A stretch of 64,000 bases of DNA. Origin: Hyphomonadaceae bacterium. GTDB taxonomy: Bacteria; Pseudomonadota; Alphaproteobacteria; Caulobacterales; Aquidulcibacteraceae. The first letter of the stretch is position 1. The number at the start of each line of letters is the position of its first letter. The position numbers were made by a program, and so were the translations under genes. The notes beneath the pieces were generated by a model. The model was not told where the DNA came from, searched no databases, and saw only the letters and a list, made by a program, of their open reading frames with translations. The stretch lies in contig JBFWOC010000002.1 of the NCBI GenBank assembly GCA_050250735.1, forward strand, positions 56,614 through 120,613, written 5' to 3'. Positions 4,024 to 58,815 of this stretch are shown here, in pieces.

Positions 4024-4103
4024 CTCGCGCCCGACGCCGGTAAGGTGGAAACAAGCTCGCGCCCAGGGGCGTTGGCCCTGACTAGCACAGGCGTAACCCG
4101 GTC

Positions 4104-5141
4104 ATGGCAAGAATCGAGCTATTCGCGATCGGGGCTTCGGCTGGCGGGCTAGAGGCCTTGGAGCGGATAGTCGCAAACCTGCCGGCGGACTTTCCCGCCG
4201 CGATCTGCGTGGTGGTGCACGTCGCCGCCAACAGTCCTGGACTCATACCCGAAATCATCAGTTCGCACGGTCCGTTGCAGGCGACGCACGCCGAGGACGG
4301 GATGTTGCTCACCGGCGGAGGCATTTTCGTAGCTCCGCCCGATCATCACCTGCTGATCGATCAGGGAGGAAAGTTGCGGCTCGGGCGAGGACCGAAGGAA
4401 AATCGCTTCCGCCCCGCCATCGACCCATTATTCCGCTCGGCGGCGCGGGCGTTCGAACAACGCGCCGCCGGCATCATCCTGTCGGGTGGATTGGATGACG
4501 GCGTCGCCGGCCTCATCGCCATCCAGCGCTGCGGCGGGGCGGTGATCGTGCAGGATCCGGCAGACGCCGCGGCGCCCTCAATGCCGCTGGCGGCGCTGCG
4601 CGCGCTCGACCCTGACAAGCAACTGCCTGCCGACGGCATTGCGCACGCGATGACGGAATTGGCCACCGTCTCGACGCGCCGCGTCGCCAGACAGAAGCCG
4701 ATCAAGGAAGATCTCGATCGCGAAATCAGCATCGCCGCGGGCGCGGACAGCCACCCGATCGACGTTCTGCAAGTGGGCGAGCCGAGCTTGCTGACTTGTC
4801 CCGATTGTCACGGCGTGCTGGTGCGCCTGCGCGATTCCGAGCCGGCGCGGTACCGGTGCCATACCGGCCACGCCTACACGGTGGAGAGCCTGCTTTCGGC
4901 CATGCGCGACCGGGTCGAGAACACGCTCTGGGATTCGATCAGATGCCTGGAGGAATATGCGGCGCTGCTCGAACACGCCGCCACGCACAAGGAGGCGCGC
5001 CAAGCCGAGGACGATATGCAGATCGTCCGCGAGGTCAGGCGCCGCTCCGGCATCGTGCGGGATTTGGTCAAAGCGGAAGACCAAGAGCCCGCAGCAAGCC
5101 CGGCAACCCCAGCCCACCCCGCCCGCGCCCGCCGAAGCTGA
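4104..5141 (+). CDS. stand-alone CheB-type protein-glutamate methylesterase domain protein (no receiver domain)
   Basis: 345-aa ORF. IGASAGGLEALERIV, VVVHV and GIILSGGLDDG are CheB catalytic-domain motifs. The C-terminal CPDCHGVL..YRCHTGHAYT is zinc-ribbon-like. It is divergent from the CheB/CheR kinase gene. Confidence 0.8.
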   Translation: MARIELFAIGASAGGLEALERIVANLPADFPAAICVVVHVAANSPGLIPEIISSHGPLQATHAEDGMLLTGGGIFVAPPDHHLLIDQGGKLRLGRGPKENRFRPAIDPLFRSAARAFEQRAAGIILSGGLDDGVAGLIAIQRCGGAVIVQDPADAAAPSMPLAALRALDPDKQLPADGIAHAMTELATVSTRRVARQKPIKEDLDREISIAAGADSHPIDVLQVGEPSLLTCPDCHGVLVRLRDSEPARYRCHTGHAYTVESLLSAMRDRVENTLWDSIRCLEEYAALLEHAATHKEARQAEDDMQIVREVRRRSGIVRDLVKAEDQEPAASPATPAHPARARRS

Positions 5142-47935: not shown

Positions 47936-48826
47936 ATGGACTGGGACAAGCTCAAGACCTTTCACTTCGCCGCCGAGACCGGAAGCCTGACGGCCGCGGC
48001 CGAAAAGCTCGGCGTCAGCCAGTCCTCGGTCAGCCGCCAGATTGCTGCGCTTGAAAGCGACATGGGCGTGCCGCTGTTCCAGCGGCATGCACGCGGGCTG
48101 CTGCTGACCGGCCCAGGCATGGCGCTGCGCGAGTTCACCCGCGAAATGGCAGGCGCAGCGGTGATTGCGGAATCGACGCTGAAGGACGCGCGCGAGAAGG
48201 TGATCGGCGACTTGAAGGTGACGGCGCCGGTGGCGTTCGGTTCGACCTGGCTTGCGCCGCGGCTTGGCGCGTTCGCAGATCAATATCCCGAAACGCGGCT
48301 GCAGATACTGCTGGACGACCGCGAATACGATCTGCTGAAGCTCGAGGCCGAATGCGCTATCCGGCTCTGGGCCGCAACGCACGCCGATCTGATCCAGCGC
48401 AAACTGCTGGAGGTGCATGTCAGCCTCTATGCATCGGCCGCTTATCTGCAGCGCCACGGCACGCCCAAGAAAGTCGAAGACCTCGATGAGCACCGGATCA
48501 TCGCCTATCAGGCGGGCGTGCCTACGCCGATGCGCGAGATGGACTGGGCCCAGCGCGCCGGGCGCGAGGATGCAAAGCCCCGCCCGCCGCTGCTCGAGAT
48601 CAACAACGTCTACGGCATGCTGCGTGCGGTCGAGTCCGGCTTCGGCATCGCCAGCGTGCCCGATTACATGGCGCGCGAGAATCCGAACCTGGTGAAGGTG
48701 CTGCCTGAACTGAAAGGCCCGAGCTTCGAAGTGTATTTCATCTATCCCAGCGATCTGAAACGCTCGAAGCGCATTGCCGCCTTCCGCCAATTCCTGATCG
48801 ACCAGGCGTCGGATTGGGAGCCTTGA
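47936..48826 (+). CDS. LysR family transcriptional regulator
   Basis: Track ORF 47879..48826; ATG at 47936. MDWDKLKTFHFAAETGSLTAAAEKLGVSQSSVSRQIAALE is a LysR HTH. Confidence 0.9.
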   Translation: MDWDKLKTFHFAAETGSLTAAAEKLGVSQSSVSRQIAALESDMGVPLFQRHARGLLLTGPGMALREFTREMAGAAVIAESTLKDAREKVIGDLKVTAPVAFGSTWLAPRLGAFADQYPETRLQILLDDREYDLLKLEAECAIRLWAATHADLIQRKLLEVHVSLYASAAYLQRHGTPKKVEDLDEHRIIAYQAGVPTPMREMDWAQRAGREDAKPRPPLLEINNVYGMLRAVESGFGIASVPDYMARENPNLVKVLPELKGPSFEVYFIYPSDLKRSKRIAAFRQFLIDQASDWEP

Positions 48827-48827
48827 G

Positions 48828-49264
48828 CAGGTGTCAGGACTCAGGTGTCAGGTGTCATGAGCGAGCTCCGCGGCGCGCCTTCGGTTTGGGACATGATTGT
48901 GTTCCAAAAGGCGTATGCGACAGCTCTCGAAACACACCGTATCGCTCTGACGTTTCCGAAGCATGAGCAATATGAACTCGCCAGCCAGCTTCGGAGGTCC
49001 AGCAAATCCATTTGCGCAAATCTCGCCGAAGGCCGCGCAAGACAACAAGGCTCAAACGCCGAGTTTCGACGCTTCGTTTTGATTGCGCTCGGGAGCGCCG
49101 ACGAGTCGGCGCTTTGGTGCAAGTTCGCGCGAGACCTGGGTTATCTTACTGAGGACCAACACGCGCAACTTACAGGGCAATTTAGCGAAATCGCCAAGAT
49201 GCTGAACAGCCTAGTCTCGAAGCTGAACGCATCCTGACACCTGACACCTGATACCCGACACCTG
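48828..49264 (+). mobile_element. heptamer-array-bounded cassette carrying one four-helix-bundle ORF
   Basis: Left array 48828-48855: CAGGTGT CAGGACT CAGGTGT CAGGTGT. Right array 49237-49264: ACACCTG ACACCTG ATACCCG ACACCTG. The right array is the reverse complement of the left at 25/28 positions. A hand count of the first 120 nt of the ORF gives 64 G+C (53%), lower than the surroundings. Confidence 0.6.
48857..49237 (+). CDS. four-helix-bundle protein (TIGR02436 / 23S rRNA intervening-sequence protein family, Avd-like)
   Basis: 126 aa from the ATG at 48857 (track ORF 48845..49237). FPKHEQYELASQLRRSSKSICANLAEGRAR..EFRRFVLIALGSADES..W is the hallmark pattern of this family. Confidence 0.8.
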   Translation: MSELRGAPSVWDMIVFQKAYATALETHRIALTFPKHEQYELASQLRRSSKSICANLAEGRARQQGSNAEFRRFVLIALGSADESALWCKFARDLGYLTEDQHAQLTGQFSEIAKMLNSLVSKLNAS

Positions 49265-50164
49265 TTAGAGCTGCCCCGCCGGCACGTTGAACGTATCGCA
49301 CTGGCGGGCGTCGCCGGAATTGAAGCCGCGCCTGAACCAAGTCACGCGTTGGGCGCTGGTGCCATGGGTGAATTGGGCCTCGTTGCTTTGGCCGAGCGTG
49401 TCATCGCCGATCGCATGCGCAGCGTTGAGCGCCTCACGCAGATCGGCGTCGTCGATCGCCAACGTCGACCGCGCGGTGTGACCCCATACGCCGGCGAGGC
49501 AATCGGCCTGCAGCTCGACGCGCACCGAGGTCTGGTTGCGGGACTCGCCCTGAACCTGAATTTGCGTCGCCCCGATCAGGTTCTGCACGTGGTGGCCGAC
49601 TTCGTGCGCGATGACATAAGCCTGAGCGAAATCACCCGGCGCGCGCAGGCGGCTCTCCATCACCTGGTAGAAACTCGGATCAACGTAGAGCTTGCGATCG
49701 CCCGGGCAGTAGAACGGGCCGACTTCCGCCGAGGCGCTGCCGCAGCCCTCGGTCGCCACGCCGCCGGAGTACACAACGAGCGTCGGATTCTGATACGCGC
49801 CCGTTTGTTGGCCGTAGTTCGGCAGCCGTCCTTGCGAGAATTGCGTTGCCCACACGTCTTCCGTGGAGCCGAGCACGGCGCGAGAGAAATCGCATGCCTG
49901 CGCGTTGCTTTCGCACACGCTGCCTTCGCCTTGCGACTGCGCCTGACCCGGCACGCCGCCCAGCAATGCGCCGAAGACCATGTCCTTGATGCCAGGCGGT
50001 GCGAAGAAATAGATGCCCGCAAGCACGACGACGACGATCAGAATGCCGCGCAACCCGATGCGCCGGAGAATGGCGAACAATGCGCCGGCAGGCAGTCCGC
50101 CGCCGCCGCCGCCACGGCCGCGATCTTCGAAATTGTCGGAACGTCGCTGGCCTTCGGTACGCAT
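49265..50164 (-). CDS. neutral zinc metallopeptidase, YpfJ-like
   Basis: 299 aa. RRSDNFEDRRG is followed by a Gly run and a TM helix. FAQAYVIAHEVGHHVQN contains the HExxH motif. Confidence 0.85.
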   Translation of the reverse strand: MRTEGQRRSDNFEDRGRGGGGGGLPAGALFAILRRIGLRGILIVVVVLAGIYFFAPPGIKDMVFGALLGGVPGQAQSQGEGSVCESNAQACDFSRAVLGSTEDVWATQFSQGRLPNYGQQTGAYQNPTLVVYSGGVATEGCGSASAEVGPFYCPGDRKLYVDPSFYQVMESRLRAPGDFAQAYVIAHEVGHHVQNLIGATQIQVQGESRNQTSVRVELQADCLAGVWGHTARSTLAIDDADLREALNAAHAIGDDTLGQSNEAQFTHGTSAQRVTWFRRGFNSGDARQCDTFNVPAGQL

Positions 50165-50187
50165 GGCGTCTCCCCTTTTCGGCGAGA

Positions 50188-51429
50188 TTAGCCCGCCGCT
50201 TCCCGGCGGGGCAACGCGGAACTGCCTGCCGCCGCTCGCAACACCATAGAAAGCGCGACCAGCGCCAGCACGGCGGCCAAAATAAAGGCCGCGCCAGGGA
50301 AATGCACCGGCGCGCCATCGGCGGAGAAACGCCCAAGCGTCTGGGTCATCAGCAGCGGCCCCAATATGGTGGTGAGGCTCATCATGCTGGCGACACCGCC
50401 CTGCAACTCGCCTTGAGCGTCGGGCGGGACTTGTTTCGACATGATCGCGTTCATGGCCGGGTAGGCCAGCCCCTGCAGCGCGCCCAGCGTCATCGCCGCA
50501 TAGACCATCCAGCTCTGCGTCGCGACCGAAAGGGCGAGCATGCTCAAGGTCCCTGAGAGCATGCCGAGGATCACGGCGCGATGCTCGCCGATGCGCGGCA
50601 CGATCCTGCCGGTGAGATAGCCTTGCGTGAACGCCATCAACACGCCGGTGAAGGCAAGCGAGCCGCCGATCGCCGCCTCGCTCCAGTCAAAGCGAAGCTT
50701 GGCGAAAAACGCCCACGTCGATGGGTACACTTGGTGCGCCAGCTGCCACAAAAACACGGCGCCGGCGATGGCGATGACAGCGGGATAGCGGCGAAGCGCA
50801 AGCAGCGTGCCCAGGGGATTGGCGCGCGCCCATTCGAAGTCGCGCCGGCGCTGCGACGGCAAGCTCTCGGGAAGGAAGAAGTAGCCGTAAACGAAGTTGA
50901 GCGCGCCAAGCGCTGCAGCGGCGAAGAACGGCGCGCGGGGCCCGAGTTCGCCCAGCAAACCGCCAATGGCTGGGCCGAGAATGAACCCGACGCCGAACGC
51001 GGCGCCGACAAGTCCGAAGCTCTGGGCTCGCTTCTCCGGCGCCGAGACGTCGGCAATGTAGGCCATGGCCGGCGAATAGACCGCGCCGGCGACGCCAGCC
51101 ACCGCACGGCCAAGGAAGAGCCAGCCCAAGGTCGGCGCAAAGCCCATCAGCGCATAATCGAAGGCGAACGCGGCGAGCGACATGAGCAAGACGGGCCGGC
51201 GGCCGTAGCGATCGCTCAAATTGCCGAGGATCGGCCCGCAGACGAATTGCAGCGCCGCGTAAGTGATGAGCAGCCATCCCGCGAGCAGCGTTGCTTGCGC
51301 CATCGGCGCTCCGGTCAGCGTCACGATCAGTTGCGGCATCACCGGCAAGATGATGCCGAAGCCGATCGTGTCGATCAGCACGGTCAGGAAGATGAACGCC
51401 AGCGCGTGTTTGCTTGGTGGGCGTGACAT
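50188..51429 (-). CDS. MFS transporter, TCR/TetA-like
   Basis: 413 aa and about 12 TM helices. [23 protein letters not shown] and [14 protein letters not shown] are typical TetA-class MFS motifs. Confidence 0.85.
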
Positions 51430-51455
51430 TCCTGGTTTCCCCCAGTGCGAGCTTC

Positions 51456-52541
51456 TTACGTCTGCCGATCGCCGTCGTCGAACAGATCGGCTTGTCCATC
51501 CAGGTCAAGTGGCCGCCGAAATTGAGTGTGGTCGAGCGGCGGCGGCGGCCTGTCGAGGCCGAACCGCTTGCGCGCGGCGGCAAAGCGGGCGGCTATCAAC
51601 TTGGCGTACGGCCCCTCGCCTTTCTGCCGCTTGCTCCACTCGGGATCGTAATCGCGGCCGCCGCGCATCTGGCGCACCAGGCTGATTACCCGCGTCGAGC
51701 GGTCCGGGAAATGCTTGTGCAGCCATTCGCGGAATAGATCTTTGATCTCAAGCGGCAGCCTCAGCACGACGTAACCGCACGCGGACGCGCCTGCCTGGGC
51801 GCATTGCTCCAGGATCGCTTCGATCTCGCTGTCGTTGATCGCCGGCACCACCGGAGCGACCATGACGGTGACGGGCACGCCCGCCTCCGCGAGCATGCGG
51901 ATCGCTTCGATACGCCGATGCGGGGCCGCCGCTCGAGGCTCCATCACCCGGGCGATGCGGCGCTCCAGTGTGGTCACCGAGATAGCGGCCTTGGCGAGCC
52001 CACGCTCCGCCAGCCGTGCAAGGACATCGATGTCGCGGATCACGAGTTGCGACTTGGTGATGAGCGACACCGGATGGCGCCAACGTTCCATCACTTCGAG
52101 AATGCCGCGGGTGACGCCATAGCCGCGCTCGATCGGTTGATAGATGTCGGTCACGCCGCCGAGCATGATGGTCTTCGGCCTGTAGTTGGGCCTCGCGAAC
52201 TCGCGTTCGAGCAATTCGACTGCGTTCGCCTTCACGAACAGCTTGGTTTCGAAATCGAGTCCCGGCGAGAGACCGACATAGGCGTGGTTCGGCCGCGCGT
52301 AGCAATAGATGCAGCCGTGTTCGCAGCCGCGATAGGGATTGATCGACTGCTCGAACGAAATGTCGGGGCTCTGATTGGTGGAAATGATGGTCTTGGCCAA
52401 TTCAGGCGTGACGATCGTCTCCAGCGGCCGGGCGCCGTCTTCGCCCACCCAACCGTCATCGAAGGCTTCGCGAACGAAGCGTTCGTAGCGCCCGCTGGCG
52501 TTGGTGCGCGCGCCCCTGCCATGCAGCGGATCGGATGTCAT
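51456..52541 (-). CDS. PA0069-family radical SAM protein (COG1533, SplB-like)
   Basis: 361 aa. GRGARTNASGRYE and YRGCEHGCIYCYARP contain the CxxxCxxC cluster. Confidence 0.85.
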   Translation of the reverse strand: MTSDPLHGRGARTNASGRYERFVREAFDDGWVGEDGARPLETIVTPELAKTIISTNQSPDISFEQSINPYRGCEHGCIYCYARPNHAYVGLSPGLDFETKLFVKANAVELLEREFARPNYRPKTIMLGGVTDIYQPIERGYGVTRGILEVMERWRHPVSLITKSQLVIRDIDVLARLAERGLAKAAISVTTLERRIARVMEPRAAAPHRRIEAIRMLAEAGVPVTVMVAPVVPAINDSEIEAILEQCAQAGASACGYVVLRLPLEIKDLFREWLHKHFPDRSTRVISLVRQMRGGRDYDPEWSKRQKGEGPYAKLIAARFAAARKRFGLDRPPPPLDHTQFRRPLDLDGQADLFDDGDRQT

Positions 52542-52565
52542 TCACTGGGATTATTATCCTAATAA

Positions 52566-52580
52566 GAACAAATCAAGAAC
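52566..52580 (-). promoter_or_regulatory. alphaproteobacterial SOS (LexA) box, GAAC-N7-GAAC
   Basis: GAACAAATCAAGAAC lies 24 nt upstream of the radical SAM ATG. On the minus strand it overlaps a plausible promoter: TTGTTC, an 18-nt spacer, then GATAAT (52553-52582). Confidence 0.55.
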
Positions 52581-52584
52581 AATT

Positions 52585-52770
52585 TCAGGAATGCCGGGCT
52601 GGCTGGTCGTTTCCGTGGGGCTCGCTGCGGATTGTTTCGTCGATGCGGCGGAGCTGATTTTCGAATGGTTTTTTCTCGCCAATCGACCCGTTGCTGGCGT
52701 AGGCGCGCTGCAGCGTCGCGCGCAGTGACGCGAGTTTTTGCGCCTTGGTCGGTTGGACGAAGCCTTCCAT
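52585..52770 (-). CDS. small hypothetical protein (61 aa)
   Basis: The track ORF has mostly GC-ending codons. There is no clear SD, and its 3' end abuts the SOS-box promoter region. Confidence 0.35.
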   Translation of the reverse strand: MEGFVQPTKAQKLASLRATLQRAYASNGSIGEKKPFENQLRRIDETIRSEPHGNDQPARHS

Positions 52771-52825
52771 GCCTTGGCAAGACCGGTACCGCCGCTGAGG
52801 TTCCGCCGGGCGGTTTTAAAAACCT

Positions 52826-52851
52826 TAGGGCGCCGGTCTCCCGGCGCCCTA
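52826..52851. terminator. bidirectional rho-independent terminator-like hairpin
   Basis: tagggcgccgg tctc ccggcgcccta (11-bp stem). It is flanked by TTTT on the plus strand (52853-52856) and TTTTT on the minus strand (complement of 52818-52822). Confidence 0.6.
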
Positions 52852-52930
52852 GTTTTGTGGGCTTAACATGGATGTCTGCCTGTTTCTTGCGCCCCTCAGG
52901 GGGCCTGGGAAGGTTCAGGTCAGCGACCCG

Positions 52931-53023
52931 TCAGGCAACCATCTGCGCGGCTTGGTTCAACGTCAGAAACGCAACCGGGGCGAGCACCGCGAGCGCCGCA
53001 ACAAGGCAATAAAACTTGGTCAT
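52931..53023 (-). CDS. candidate small hydrophobic peptide (30 aa), not in ORF track
   Basis: Hand translation: MTKFYCLVAALAVLAPVAFLTLNQAAQMVA, or 34 aa from the ATG at 53035. The leader GAGGAGAGATGGAGCAGGAA is purine-rich. The hairpin terminator lies about 80 nt downstream. Confidence 0.35.
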   Translation of the reverse strand: MTKFYCLVAALAVLAPVAFLTLNQAAQMVA

Positions 53024-53135
53024 TTCCTGCTCCATCTCTCCTCGAACCGTCCATCGATCCGATGAGTTGAAGCTAATGAGCGTTTAGCCTTCTGGATGTG
53101 ACACGGGGCACAGGATCGTAGCGGCCCCGCTTCAT

Positions 53136-53885
53136 TCACATAAAGCCCATGTCGCGGTCGTAACTGCGGAAACGGCGGCCGGCGTCGACGTAAACGGTCT
53201 GGCCGGTGACCGCGTCGTTCTCGATCAAGAAGCGGACGGCGTGGGCGATGTGCTCGGGCGTGGGTCCGGTTTCGAGCGGGGTGTCGGCGTGCAGGCGCCG
53301 CCAATCCGCTTCCGCTTGCCCCGGCGCTGGCAACACATAGCCGGGCGCTACGGCATTCACGCGCACGCGCGGCGCCAGCGCGCGCGCAAGCAGCTCGGTC
53401 GCGCCGGCGAGCGCGTATTTAGAAAGTGTGTAGGAGAAGTGATCGGGATACGGGTTGGCGAGCTTGAAATCGAGGAAGTTCACGATTGCGCCGCGGCCGT
53501 GCTCCGGCAGCGACTCGGCAAACTCTCGCGACAGCATCGCCGGCGTAAACGCGTTGATGGCGATATGCTTTTGCAGCAATTCTTCGCTCATCGTGTCGAT
53601 GGTGTCGTGCTCGAATATAGCGGCGCAATTGACCAGCGCCGTCAGCGGCGCACCGGCGGCATTTGCAGCGCCGGAGATGAGGCCGTGACGCTCGGCCGCG
53701 TTGCCGAGATCGGCGCCTATCGCAACCGCAGCGGCGCCGGCTTCGCGCACGGTCGAGGCCACAGCCTCGGCCTCTGCGCGTGAGTGGCGATAATGAATGG
53801 CGACATTCCAGCCGTGATGCGCAAGCTCGATCGCAACGGCGCGCCCTAGCCGCTGACCGGCGCCGGTGACCAGCGCCCAGTTCAT
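53136..53885 (-). CDS. short-chain dehydrogenase/reductase (pteridine reductase/FolM-like)
   Basis: Track ORF 53136..53993; the ATG at 53885 gives MNWALVTGAGQRLGRAVA (TGxxxxxG). YTLSKYAL is the YxxxK motif. There is a 4-nt ATGA overlap with the upstream folB-like gene. Confidence 0.8.
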   Translation of the reverse strand: MNWALVTGAGQRLGRAVAIELAHHGWNVAIHYRHSRAEAEAVASTVREAGAAAVAIGADLGNAAERHGLISGAANAAGAPLTALVNCAAIFEHDTIDTMSEELLQKHIAINAFTPAMLSREFAESLPEHGRGAIVNFLDFKLANPYPDHFSYTLSKYALAGATELLARALAPRVRVNAVAPGYVLPAPGQAEADWRRLHADTPLETGPTPEHIAHAVRFLIENDAVTGQTVYVDAGRRFRSYDRDMGFM

Positions 53886-54247
53886 TGGCGTTCCCTGCGG
53901 ATCGTCACCGCAACCAGCCCATCGCCGGAAAGCACAGAAGGCTTCTTCACTGTCACTTCCACCCAGAGCGCACGACTGGAGAGCGACAAGCAATGGCCGG
54001 CGACGCGGTCCGAGAGCGTCTCGATGAGATGCGCCGGTTCGCCGAGATCATCGCGAATGAAATGAATGATGCGGTCGTAATCGACGGTTTCGCCGATCCG
54101 GTCATGGGCCGGATAGAGCGGAGGATCGGCCAGGGCAAGCGTCACCGAGATGCGCACCTCCTGCGGCGTTGCGCGCTCGGGATCGGGCACCCCTACCCGC
54201 ACCAGCGCCTTGGCGTCGTCGATACGGAGAATGTGGAGATCGGCCAT
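53882..54247 (-). CDS. folB: dihydroneopterin aldolase family protein
   Basis: 121 aa. VRVGVPDPERATPQEVRISVTL and ETVDYDRIIHFIRD fit FolB-type tunnel-fold proteins. It is paired with an SDR, as in other folB-folM-like pairs. Confidence 0.7.
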   Translation of the reverse strand: MADLHILRIDDAKALVRVGVPDPERATPQEVRISVTLALADPPLYPAHDRIGETVDYDRIIHFIRDDLGEPAHLIETLSDRVAGHCLSLSSRALWVEVTVKKPSVLSGDGLVAVTIRRERQ

Positions 54248-54379
54248 CAGGTACCAGGTGTCAGGTGTCAGATATCAGTTATCAATTGGGAGATGAACAT
54301 GGCCGGGCCGTTATCCAGGCTGATGCAAACTATTCTGACAACTGACACCCGACACCCGACACCTAACACCTGACACCTG
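54248..54379. mobile_element. second heptamer-array element with no clear ORF between the arrays (empty or decayed copy)
   Basis: Left array 54248-54289: CAGGTAC CAGGTGT CAGGTGT CAGATAT CAGTTAT CAATTGG. A 48-bp centre follows. Right array 54338-54379: ACAACTG ACACCCG ACACCCG ACACCTA ACACCTG ACACCTG. It fills the whole gap between the folB ATG and the EamA stop. Confidence 0.6.
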
Positions 54380-55213
54380 TCAGGCGAAGGCGATGAGGCC
54401 AGCGCCCGCGGCGACGATCGCGGCGCCGAGCCAGCGGCGAAGCCCCAGCCCCTCGCGCAGGAACAGGAAGGCGATCAGCGCACCCCAAACCACGGAAGTT
54501 TCGCGCAACGCCGTCACTTGCGCGATCGGGGCGAAGGTCTGCGCCCAAAGCACCAGCCCGTAGCCGGCGAAACTGATAACGCCGATAGCAATGCCGCGCC
54601 AGGGCGCAATCGCCGCGGCGGTCAGCAATCGCGCCGCCCCTCGCCGCCAGAACGCAAAGACGGCCATGGGCACGGACATGAGTGTCATCGACCAGCCGAG
54701 GAAGATCACCGCATTGCCGGCCGCGCGCGCACCCAGCGCGTCGACCAGCGAGTAGGAGGCGATGCAAAGACCGATGGCACCTGCCCAGAGCGTCGCCTTC
54801 AGCGGCGCACGCGGGCTGGCCCCGACGGTGAACACGCCGAGCGAAACCAGCGCAATGCCGGCCAGTTTCAACGGCGGCGGAATCTCATGCGCCGTGAGCG
54901 CCGCGCCAAAAGCCACCAGCATCGGCGCCATGCCGCGCGAGAGCGTATAGACATGGCTCATGTCGCCGGCGTCATAGCCTTTGAACAGACAGAACCAATA
55001 GGTGAGGTGGATGCAGATGGTCAGCCCGAGATAAGGCCACGCGGCCTGCGGCAGCGCGCCAAGCGAGAGGATGATCAGAAACCCCGCACCGAGACCGCCG
55101 ACCGCGATGAGGAAGGAATCCGTCACGCGGTCCGTGCCGCCCTTGAGCGCGGCGTTCCAACTGGCGTGGATCAAGGCCGAGGCAAGGGCGGCGGCGATGG
55201 CGAGCGGCGGCAT
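54380..55213 (-). CDS. EamA/DMT family transporter
   Basis: Only the 3' 277 codons of track ORF 54380..56218 are used (ATG at 55213). About 10 TM helices with a duplicated EamA-like pattern. The upstream part of the track ORF is antisense to the next gene. Confidence 0.8.
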   Translation of the reverse strand: MPPLAIAAALASALIHASWNAALKGGTDRVTDSFLIAVGGLGAGFLIILSLGALPQAAWPYLGLTICIHLTYWFCLFKGYDAGDMSHVYTLSRGMAPMLVAFGAALTAHEIPPPLKLAGIALVSLGVFTVGASPRAPLKATLWAGAIGLCIASYSLVDALGARAAGNAVIFLGWSMTLMSVPMAVFAFWRRGAARLLTAAAIAPWRGIAIGVISFAGYGLVLWAQTFAPIAQVTALRETSVVWGALIAFLFLREGLGLRRWLGAAIVAAGAGLIAFA

Positions 55214-58470: not shown

Positions 58471-58815
58471 ATGCCGCTCTTGATGTGCCCGAACTGCAAC
58501 GCTTCGATGACCGAGGTGAAACGCAACGACGTCGCCTTCGACATGTGTCCGACCTGCCGGGGCGTATGGCTGGACCGCGGCGAGCTGGAGAAGATCATTA
58601 CCGGCGTGCAGGCCGACCGGGGCGGCGGCTTAGATCAGGGCCAAGCCCAGTTTTCGCAAGGCCAACGTCCGCCGCAGCAACCGCAGCAGGGCTACGGCGA
58701 ACGCGGCGAATATGGCGAGCGTGGCGAATACGGCGAGCGCGGCGAAGGCAGTCACGATCAGCGCGGCCGCCGCCGGCGTGGCGGCTTCGATCTTATGGAT
58801 ATTTTCGGCGACTAG
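58471..58815 (+). CDS. TFIIB-type zinc-ribbon protein with low-complexity Gly/Glu/Arg tail
   Basis: Track ORF 58426..58815; ATG at 58471 has GGAGGA upstream. CPNCNASM..CPTCRGVWLDRGELEKI is a zf-TFIIB pattern. Confidence 0.7.
   Translation: MPLLMCPNCNASMTEVKRNDVAFDMCPTCRGVWLDRGELEKIITGVQADRGGGLDQGQAQFSQGQRPPQQPQQGYGERGEYGERGEYGERGEGSHDQRGRRRRGGFDLMDIFGD
58696..58749 (+). repeat. 3 x 18-bp in-frame tandem repeat (GERGEY x3)
   Basis: ggcgaacgcggcgaatat / ggcgagcgtggcgaatac / ggcgagcgcggcgaaggc. Confidence 0.8.

Follow-up and report, generated by a model that had tools for sequence, protein, structure and literature searches.

A tandem-heptamer hairpin at the eamA-folB junction of a Hyphomonadaceae bacterium and its kinship with 23S rRNA intervening sequences

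In the 64 kb of Hyphomonadaceae DNA analysed here (the whole stretch is referred to as the window), the stop codon of a gene for an EamA transporter and the start codon of folB are separated by two inverted arrays of tandem heptamers and a short centre. The locus raises the question of what this element is, how it came to occupy the junction between two genes, and whether it matters there as DNA or as RNA.

The element and its arrival at the eamA-folB junction

The element is 132 bases in length and fills the interval from the eamA stop to the folB start without a spare base (Table 1). The sequence was found to read as originally predicted, with two inverted arms of six heptamers each around a 48-nt centre, and with the folB ATG and the EamA stop abutting the element exactly; no space remains upstream of folB for a conventional Shine-Dalgarno (SD) sequence. 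Tandem Repeats Finder (TRF) reported period-7 arrays at 54246-54284 and 54335-54379, and a repeat search identified an inverted repeat of 46 nt at the element. The only other period-7 arrays of the CAGGTGT/ACACCTG unit reported by TRF in the 64 kb were at 48828-48857 and 49233-49264. When the window was searched with the 14-mer CAGGTGTCAGGTGT, allowing up to 2 mismatches, 14 matches were obtained (0.13 expected), all of which were within these four arrays. The GC content of the element is 51.5%, compared to 64.5% for the window and 55.4% for a four-helix-bundle ORF that lies between the other two arrays. An Rfam search over positions 48500-55000 returned nothing relevant and no rRNA. The top-scoring TRF match of the window was an 18-nt unit, TACGGCGAGCGCGGCGAA, present three times in tandem at 58693-58746 and probably coding.

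Table 1. Features of the eamA-folB element and of the cassette with the four-helix-bundle gene (window coordinates).
Feature	Position	Strand	Details
Left heptamer arm	54248-54289		+ reading: CAGGTAC CAGGTGT CAGGTGT CAGATAT CAGTTAT CAATTGG
Right heptamer arm	54338-54379		+ reading: ACAACTG ACACCCG ACACCCG ACACCTA ACACCTG ACACCTG
5' arm, mRNA sense	54338..54379	-	CAGGUGU CAGGUGU UAGGUGU CGGGUGU CGGGUGU CAGUUGU; first base directly after eamA UGA
Centre / loop region	54290..54337	-	48 nt, no ORF
3' arm, mRNA sense	54248..54289	-	..AUAACUG AUAUCUG ACACCUG ACACCUG GUACCUG; last base directly before folB AUG
eamA stop codon UGA (TCA on + strand)	54380..54382	-	Flush with stem base
folB start codon AUG (CAT on + strand)	54245..54247	-	Flush with stem base
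folB	53882-54247	-	Pfam/NCBIfam: FolB
eamA	ends at 54380	-	Pfam/NCBIfam: EamA transporter
SDR gene (short-chain dehydrogenase)	overlaps folB stop		Pfam/NCBIfam
5' heptamer array, CAGGTGT x4	48828..48856	+	Starts 1 nt after LysR stop, ends 1 nt before ORF ATG
Four-helix-bundle / S23p gene	48857..49237	+	PF05635, TIGR02436; 126-aa protein; related to PDB 2GSC
3' heptamer array, ACACCTG-type	49233..49264	+	Supplies the ORF's TGA; ends at stop codon of convergent Zn-peptidase gene

The same junction was compared in related genomes. In 8 of 8 relatives (FolB 83-93% identical) the eamA TGA is followed by 13-15 nt and the folB start, with no array (native spacers include GTAAGTTCGCGCC and CTAAGTTGAGCGCCA). 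The sole other carrier among the junctions retrieved was a metagenome contig, L001 (FolB 100% identical), in which the element is 139 nt long and differs from that of the window by one extra ACACCTG unit and one substitution; the extra heptamer is absorbed by a shift of register and the predicted stem is still continuous. Because it is absent from the 8 relatives and differs in copy number in the near-identical L001, the element is recent and variable by whole heptamers, as expected of the acquired, polymorphic element that had been proposed. In the recent ancestry of this strain, a pre-formed unit consisting of the arms and an unrelated 48-nt centre replaced the 13-15-nt spacer. The element is thus an insertion. 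Its flanks, TGA and ATG, show no target-site duplication, the native spacer was replaced rather than split or duplicated, and no second copy of the centre was found in the collections searched; these points weigh against the explanation favoured below. In one Hyphomonadaceae lineage (L004-L006, positions 2400-2500) most of eamA has been deleted, with the last ~50 nt and the stop left upstream of folB and the 13-nt spacer intact.

Relatives of the element

The cassette with the four-helix-bundle gene lies 5 kb from the element and the whole of it is predicted to fold with its arms paired. The heptamer and the inverted layout are identical to those of the element, and the original assignment of both to one repeat family was supported. 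The cassette is syntenic, between Zn-peptidase and LysR genes and with the same arrays, in Terricaulis silvestris and other Hyphomonadaceae, and another such cassette was identified at a different site in a related genome. The ORF is co-oriented with LysR in the window (48828-49264) and in two further loci (L212 and L213), and with the Zn-peptidase gene in T. silvestris and another Hyphomonadaceae clade (L009 1965-2412, L010 1955-2412); from these opposite orientations it follows that the cassette has switched direction between its inverted arrays, with the flanks left in place. The orientation of the window is also that of relatives closer than T. silvestris. An MFS transporter gene is located at 50188-51429 of the window, between the Zn-peptidase and radical-SAM genes; it is also found beside the Zn-peptidase gene in L009 and L212. 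L002, L008 and L010 lack it and have the radical-SAM gene adjoining the Zn-peptidase gene.

A search of metagenomes with the four-helix-bundle protein of the window returned 79 loci (L215-L292), of which 67 were inside 23S rRNA genes, as judged from blastn matches to the 23S sequences on either side of an intervening sequence (IVS) in an Azospirillum locus. That locus (L076) is an IVS in an LSU rRNA gene and has arrays of the CAGAGGA type. Eleven of the 67 rRNA IVSs (four-helix-bundle protein 69-75% identical) have CAGGTGT/ACACCTG arrays. Array phase was then scored in 62 non-redundant cassettes as at least 3 CAG upstream and at least 3 CTG downstream in 7-nt phase: phased CAG was present upstream in 52/62 and phased CTG downstream in 52/62, while the swapped trinucleotides were present in 0/62. 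The unit across cassettes is CAG-N4 upstream and N4-CTG downstream, where N4 is lineage-specific (GTGT, AAGA, TAAT, AAAT, AGGT and others) and co-varies between the arms. On three cyanobacterial plasmids (L077, L078 and L079) four-helix-bundle genes with their own flanking heptamers are wedged between cas10/cmr3 or cas6/cas4, and in Pseudanabaena the two arrays (CTAAAAG, CCAAAAG) are direct and not inverted.

In Coxiella the IVS contains an S23p ORF and a variable number of tandem heptamers (GACAGAT), and RNase III cuts its terminal stem within the repeats (PMC4990558). By its arrays, its protein and this shared anatomy, the cassette of the window is an IVS-type element outside rRNA, and the eamA-folB hairpin is its ORF-less counterpart, a link to the 23S rRNA IVS family that was absent from the original prediction. 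The ORF-bearing members of the heptamer-array family carry an S23p/four-helix-bundle gene and include the classical 23S rRNA IVSs.

ORF-less members were sought by scanning viral contigs and species-representative genomes with the 18-mer CAGGTGTCAGGTGTCAGG, which matched 59 viral-contig loci and at least 120 loci in the genomes. The genome matches listed span Acidobacteriota, Desulfobacterales, Planctomycetota, Gemmatimonadota, Chloroflexota, Verrucomicrobiota, Cyanobacteria, Bacteroidota and Streptomyces. With a narrow HMM, a four-helix-bundle ORF was detected at 4 of the 120 genome loci listed and at none of the 59 viral loci; most of the CAGGTGT arrays among these matches are therefore not beside such a gene. 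Among the inverted pairs in the genome matches listed, 14 of 15 were ORF-less, with centres of 19-212 nt that were unrelated in sequence, and 1 enclosed a four-helix-bundle gene; the ORF-less pairs listed occur in Acidobacteriota, Desulfobacterales, Planctomycetota and others.

Array order and gene boundaries were counted with a more sensitive detection of partner arrays; an arm side was scored as having a boundary if an ORF of 100 aa or longer began or ended within 30 nt of it. The order (CAGGTGT)n...(ACACCTG)n accounted for 72 arms and the reverse order for 8 among the matches listed. An ORF boundary was present at 54/72 outer arm sides compared to 13/72 inner sides, again among the matches listed, which makes the filling of gaps between genes a property of the family. 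Hairpins that reach from stop to start codon were found elsewhere, for example in L035, in L073 and as both hairpins of viral contig L027; the latter two (4091-4167 and 4897-4980) have a common loop, CGGAARCCGAAGGTTCTTCCC, and bracket a single gene. Another hairpin (L050, 4630-4712) lies directly 3' of a phage major capsid protein E gene. A rule of array polarity relative to genes was considered and set aside, as the initial count mostly reflected the outer sides of forward-reverse (F..R) pairs abutting genes, with a weak bias in unpaired arrays.

These counts bear on the origin of the centre, which had been predicted to resemble, if faintly, the C-terminal part of the intact ORF, the whole element being an empty or deletion derivative of the 48828-49264 cassette. 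The resemblance did not hold: alignment of the centre to the four-helix-bundle ORF as DNA gave p = 0.98, the reading frame that had been named (EMNMAGPLSRLMQTIL) gave p = 0.41 against the protein, and this frame was not reported by the family HMM at E<=1000, the sole match being another frame at -1.3 bits. The centre was consequently rejected as a relic of the ORF, there being no DNA, protein or family-HMM similarity. It also lacks any detectable relative: a 22-mer scan of metagenome contigs (a collection apparently without the L001 sample) gave 0 matches, blastn against plasmids and phages gave none, and the best hit of blastn-short against 1.76 Mb of fetched related loci had E = 0.27. A copy of the native eamA-folB junction was considered as a further source, and the likeness to L002 was not significant (p = 0.15-0.72).

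That a four-helix-bundle cassette lost its ORF, either in place or before insertion, accordingly seems to us a poor explanation of the element. The arms are the same in kind as those of the cassette 5 kb away, and the ORF of the Coxiella IVS has been reported to be decaying (PMC4990558), but the centre is unlike the ORF, the family HMM and the cassettes of relatives at both DNA and protein level, and the eamA-folB site is empty, and never cassette-bearing, in 8/8 relatives. In addition, ORF-less hairpins outnumber ORF-bearing ones among the CAGGTGT matches listed; with 14 of the 15 inverted pairs listed lacking an ORF, "empty" need not mean "deleted".

Strand asymmetry of the hairpin and a proposed mechanism

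Folding of the minus-strand RNA, which is the sense strand of eamA and folB, gave -76.9 kcal/mol (z = -8.4), compared to -51.7 kcal/mol (z = -2.6) for the plus-strand RNA. No shuffled sequence folded as well as the minus strand, and the arm pattern is therefore far beyond chance. On the sense strand the 42 stem positions comprise 31 Watson-Crick pairs, 9 G·U pairs and 2 mismatches (40/42 paired, with 31 contiguous pairs from the stem base), whereas on the antisense strand they comprise 31 Watson-Crick pairs, 0 G·U pairs and 11 mismatches. Nine of the 11 differences between the arms thus preserve pairing on the transcribed strand alone. This 9:0 excess of G·U on the mRNA-sense strand argues that the hairpin is kept as RNA, and lends support to the RNA-level role that had been suggested for the element. 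Strand-biased mutation takes the form of C to U and A to G changes on the non-template strand; it could have contributed to the bias, and the 9:0 split exceeds what it usually gives.

A similar asymmetry was observed among the 62 cassettes, where pairing of the stem was better by >3 kcal/mol on the sense strand in 44 and on the antisense strand in 4. The sense-strand bias is clear for the rRNA IVSs and is absent among the ~20 non-rRNA cassettes, which counts against an RNA-level reading outside rRNA. For ORF-less hairpins with clear asymmetry and assignable genes, the wobble-favoured strand was the gene strand in four further cases (L102, L027b, L050 and L089) and disagreed with it in L190 and probably L073. 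These two also weigh against the RNA-level reading, and coincidence of the wobble-favoured strand with the gene strand was not retained as a rule for the other ORF-less hairpins, the pattern being suggestive. The CAGGTGT/ACACCTG hairpin of L190 (1810-1949) is in frame inside one long ORF, between the two BcrAD_BadFG ATPase domains of a CoA-enzyme activase, a position inside a coding region that would fit poorly with an obligatory RNase III site.

Downstream of the stem comes AUGGCCGAU, which lacks a U-tract, and neither promoter-like (sigma-70-like) nor intrinsic terminator-like sites were found in 53800-54800. The element was thus rejected as an intrinsic terminator, and the attenuator originally envisaged was abandoned with it; a promoter or terminator inside the element was likewise rejected.

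On the evidence above we think it rather likely that the element is an ORF-less member of the heptamer-array family which forms an RNA stem in the eamA-folB transcript, is cut by RNase III and holds the stop and start codons together. The element would be transcribed within an eamA-folB-SDR mRNA. Of the polycistronic RNA proposed at the outset, the placement of eamA, the element, folB and the SDR gene in one transcription unit stood, and co-transcription itself is what the gene order and spacing would lead one to expect. The transcript would then fold into a stem of ~40 bp, whose accumulated substitutions would leave it intact, through G·U pairing, on the mRNA strand only. Like the stems of the rRNA relatives, this one would be a substrate for RNase III, and a cut would separate the eamA and folB-SDR messages. 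Stop-start proximity would be kept, since at the stem base the eamA UGA comes to lie immediately beside the folB AUG (UGA-stem-AUG, UGAUG), and the 132-nt insertion would be topologically near a zero-length spacer. A ribosome ending eamA would melt the stem base and free the folB start, and coupling would allow folB to be translated without an SD of its own; such melting would explain both the survival of flush copies and the translation of folB without an SD. The tandem heptamers would let the stem re-pair in a shifted register after the gain or loss of a unit.

An alternative, which we regard as unlikely, is that the inverted arrays are the ends of a recombination or transposition system and that the RNA hairpin is an inert by-product tolerated between genes. 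Several observations are in keeping with it, namely the presence/absence polymorphism at eamA-folB, the low GC of the element, the occurrence of the same arrays across many phyla and phage-like contigs, with one case in frame within a gene, and the inversion of the cassette against its flanks from clade to clade, which recombination of inverted arms would be expected to produce. The preponderance of the F..R over the R..F order (72 arms vs 8 among the matches listed) points the same way, stem energy alone being insufficient to account for it. It does not, in turn, fit the 9:0 distribution of G·U pairs on the mRNA strand or the 44:4 ratio in IVS cassettes. Neither a target-site duplication nor a transposase with matching ends was found, and no near-identical second copy of the whole element was present in the related loci, plasmids, phages or metagenome scan.

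The element could also be a host regulatory leader, the heptamers being protein- or ribosome-binding sites that set the translation of folB and not sites of mRNA cleavage; this we consider improbable. In its favour, the 3' arm runs right up to the AUG without an SD, UGAUG overlapping the start, and flush junctions of this kind were also observed in L228, L035 and L021. A more specific form of the idea, to which we give equally little credence, is that CAGGUGU, with its SD-like AGGUG and its GUG, and ACACCUG, which resembles an anti-SD, act like the TAACTGA arrays of Beggiatoaceae. TAACTGA repeats are found no more than a few nt from start codons, in a setting in which SDs are rare (PMC4679880), and one unit of the arm is UAACUGA. 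The relatives, on the other hand, manage without an array, and polarity relative to genes is weak among unpaired arrays. Given how freely N4 differs from lineage to lineage (CAGTAAT, CAGAAAT and others), mimicry of an SD is not general, and SD/anti-SD mimicry was rejected as a general rule. It was noted that (CAGGUGU)n contains AGGUG, and GUG in all three frames, with zero stop codons, that (ACACCUG)n contains UGA in all three frames, as does the 3' arm of the element, and that the final UGA of this arm is the one overlapping the folB AUG. With N4 varying so widely in other lineages, any functional relevance of this SD, GUG and UGA content is speculation.

Comparison with known systems

A full-text literature search returned no paper tying four-helix-bundle genes outside rRNA to heptamer arrays, and no description of IVS-type heptamer hairpins in mRNA spacers or of the CAG-N4 rule. 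IVSs have been known for more than 30 years, and their origin and the role of the S23p protein are still unclear (PMC4990558). Heptamer tandem repeats are the most abundant class of short repeat in prokaryotic intergenic DNA, with "no clear clue" to their function (Mori 2018, PMC6344855). The eamA-folB locus offers a dated case of an IVS-type hairpin inserted into an ordinary operon, the site being empty in relatives, together with a sister cassette 5 kb away and a clear RNA-strand signature, and it thereby links the puzzle of IVS origin to that of intergenic heptamers. We tentatively suggest, as a possibility that is short of probable, that rRNA IVSs, four-helix-bundle cassettes, ORF-less hairpins and TAACTGA-type arrays may be one pan-bacterial CAG-N4 family, which would spread to gene boundaries and the helices of structured RNAs, would be constrained at the RNA level and would have the Avd-like four-helix-bundle protein as its dedicated factor. 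If true, such a family would explain why heptamer tandem repeats are in excess in prokaryotic intergenic DNA. The locus also represents a small, testable system for RNase III cutting, for the dependence of folB on the stem and for binding of the arrays by the four-helix-bundle protein.

The closest known counterparts are the 23S rRNA IVSs (Coxiella, Leptospira and Alphaproteobacteria), with which the element shares arms of tandem heptamers whose copy number varies between strains, a long terminal stem and pairing that is favoured on the transcribed strand; the CAGGTGT/ACACCTG heptamer itself is shared with metagenomic 23S IVSs. It differs in its location between two protein-coding genes, whereas IVSs occupy a 23S rRNA helix (9, 25 or 45), and, unlike the ORF-bearing S23p-type IVSs, it has no ORF and a centre without S23p/PF05635 similarity. 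Cleavage by RNase III is a feature of IVSs and, by analogy, would be expected of the element.

TAACTGA and related intergenic heptamer repeats were described as direct repeats near start codons, without a partner (MacGregor 2015, PMC4679880). The element resembles them in having N3-CTGA units (its 3' arm units include UAACUGA, UAUCUGA and CACCUGA) directly upstream of an SD-less start codon, with stops in all three frames, and differs in having an inverted partner array 48 nt away with which a hairpin is formed. Some IVS cassettes have CAGTTAT/ATAACTG units, which are TAACTGA in another register; in their description, TAACTGA repeats were not linked to S23p genes or IVSs (PMC4679880).

The third counterpart is the group of MITE-like hairpins that are co-transcribed with genes, among them the Correia repeat enclosed elements of Neisseria (CREE/NEMIS), which are, like the element, intergenic inverted repeats of ~100-150 bp that are polymorphic between strains. 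In CREE the terminal inverted repeats are unique, the core is conserved, a TA target duplication is present and near-identical copies number in the hundreds, whereas the arms of the element are tandem heptamers, its centre is an orphan and no target duplication can be seen. The one ORF-bearing element with these arms codes for a four-helix-bundle protein, which is not a known transposase. CREE become part of mRNA, in which RNase III can bind or cleave the hairpin and the expression of the neighbouring gene can be altered (PMC2649163). Correia-type hairpins are thus a functional analogue of the element with a different structure.
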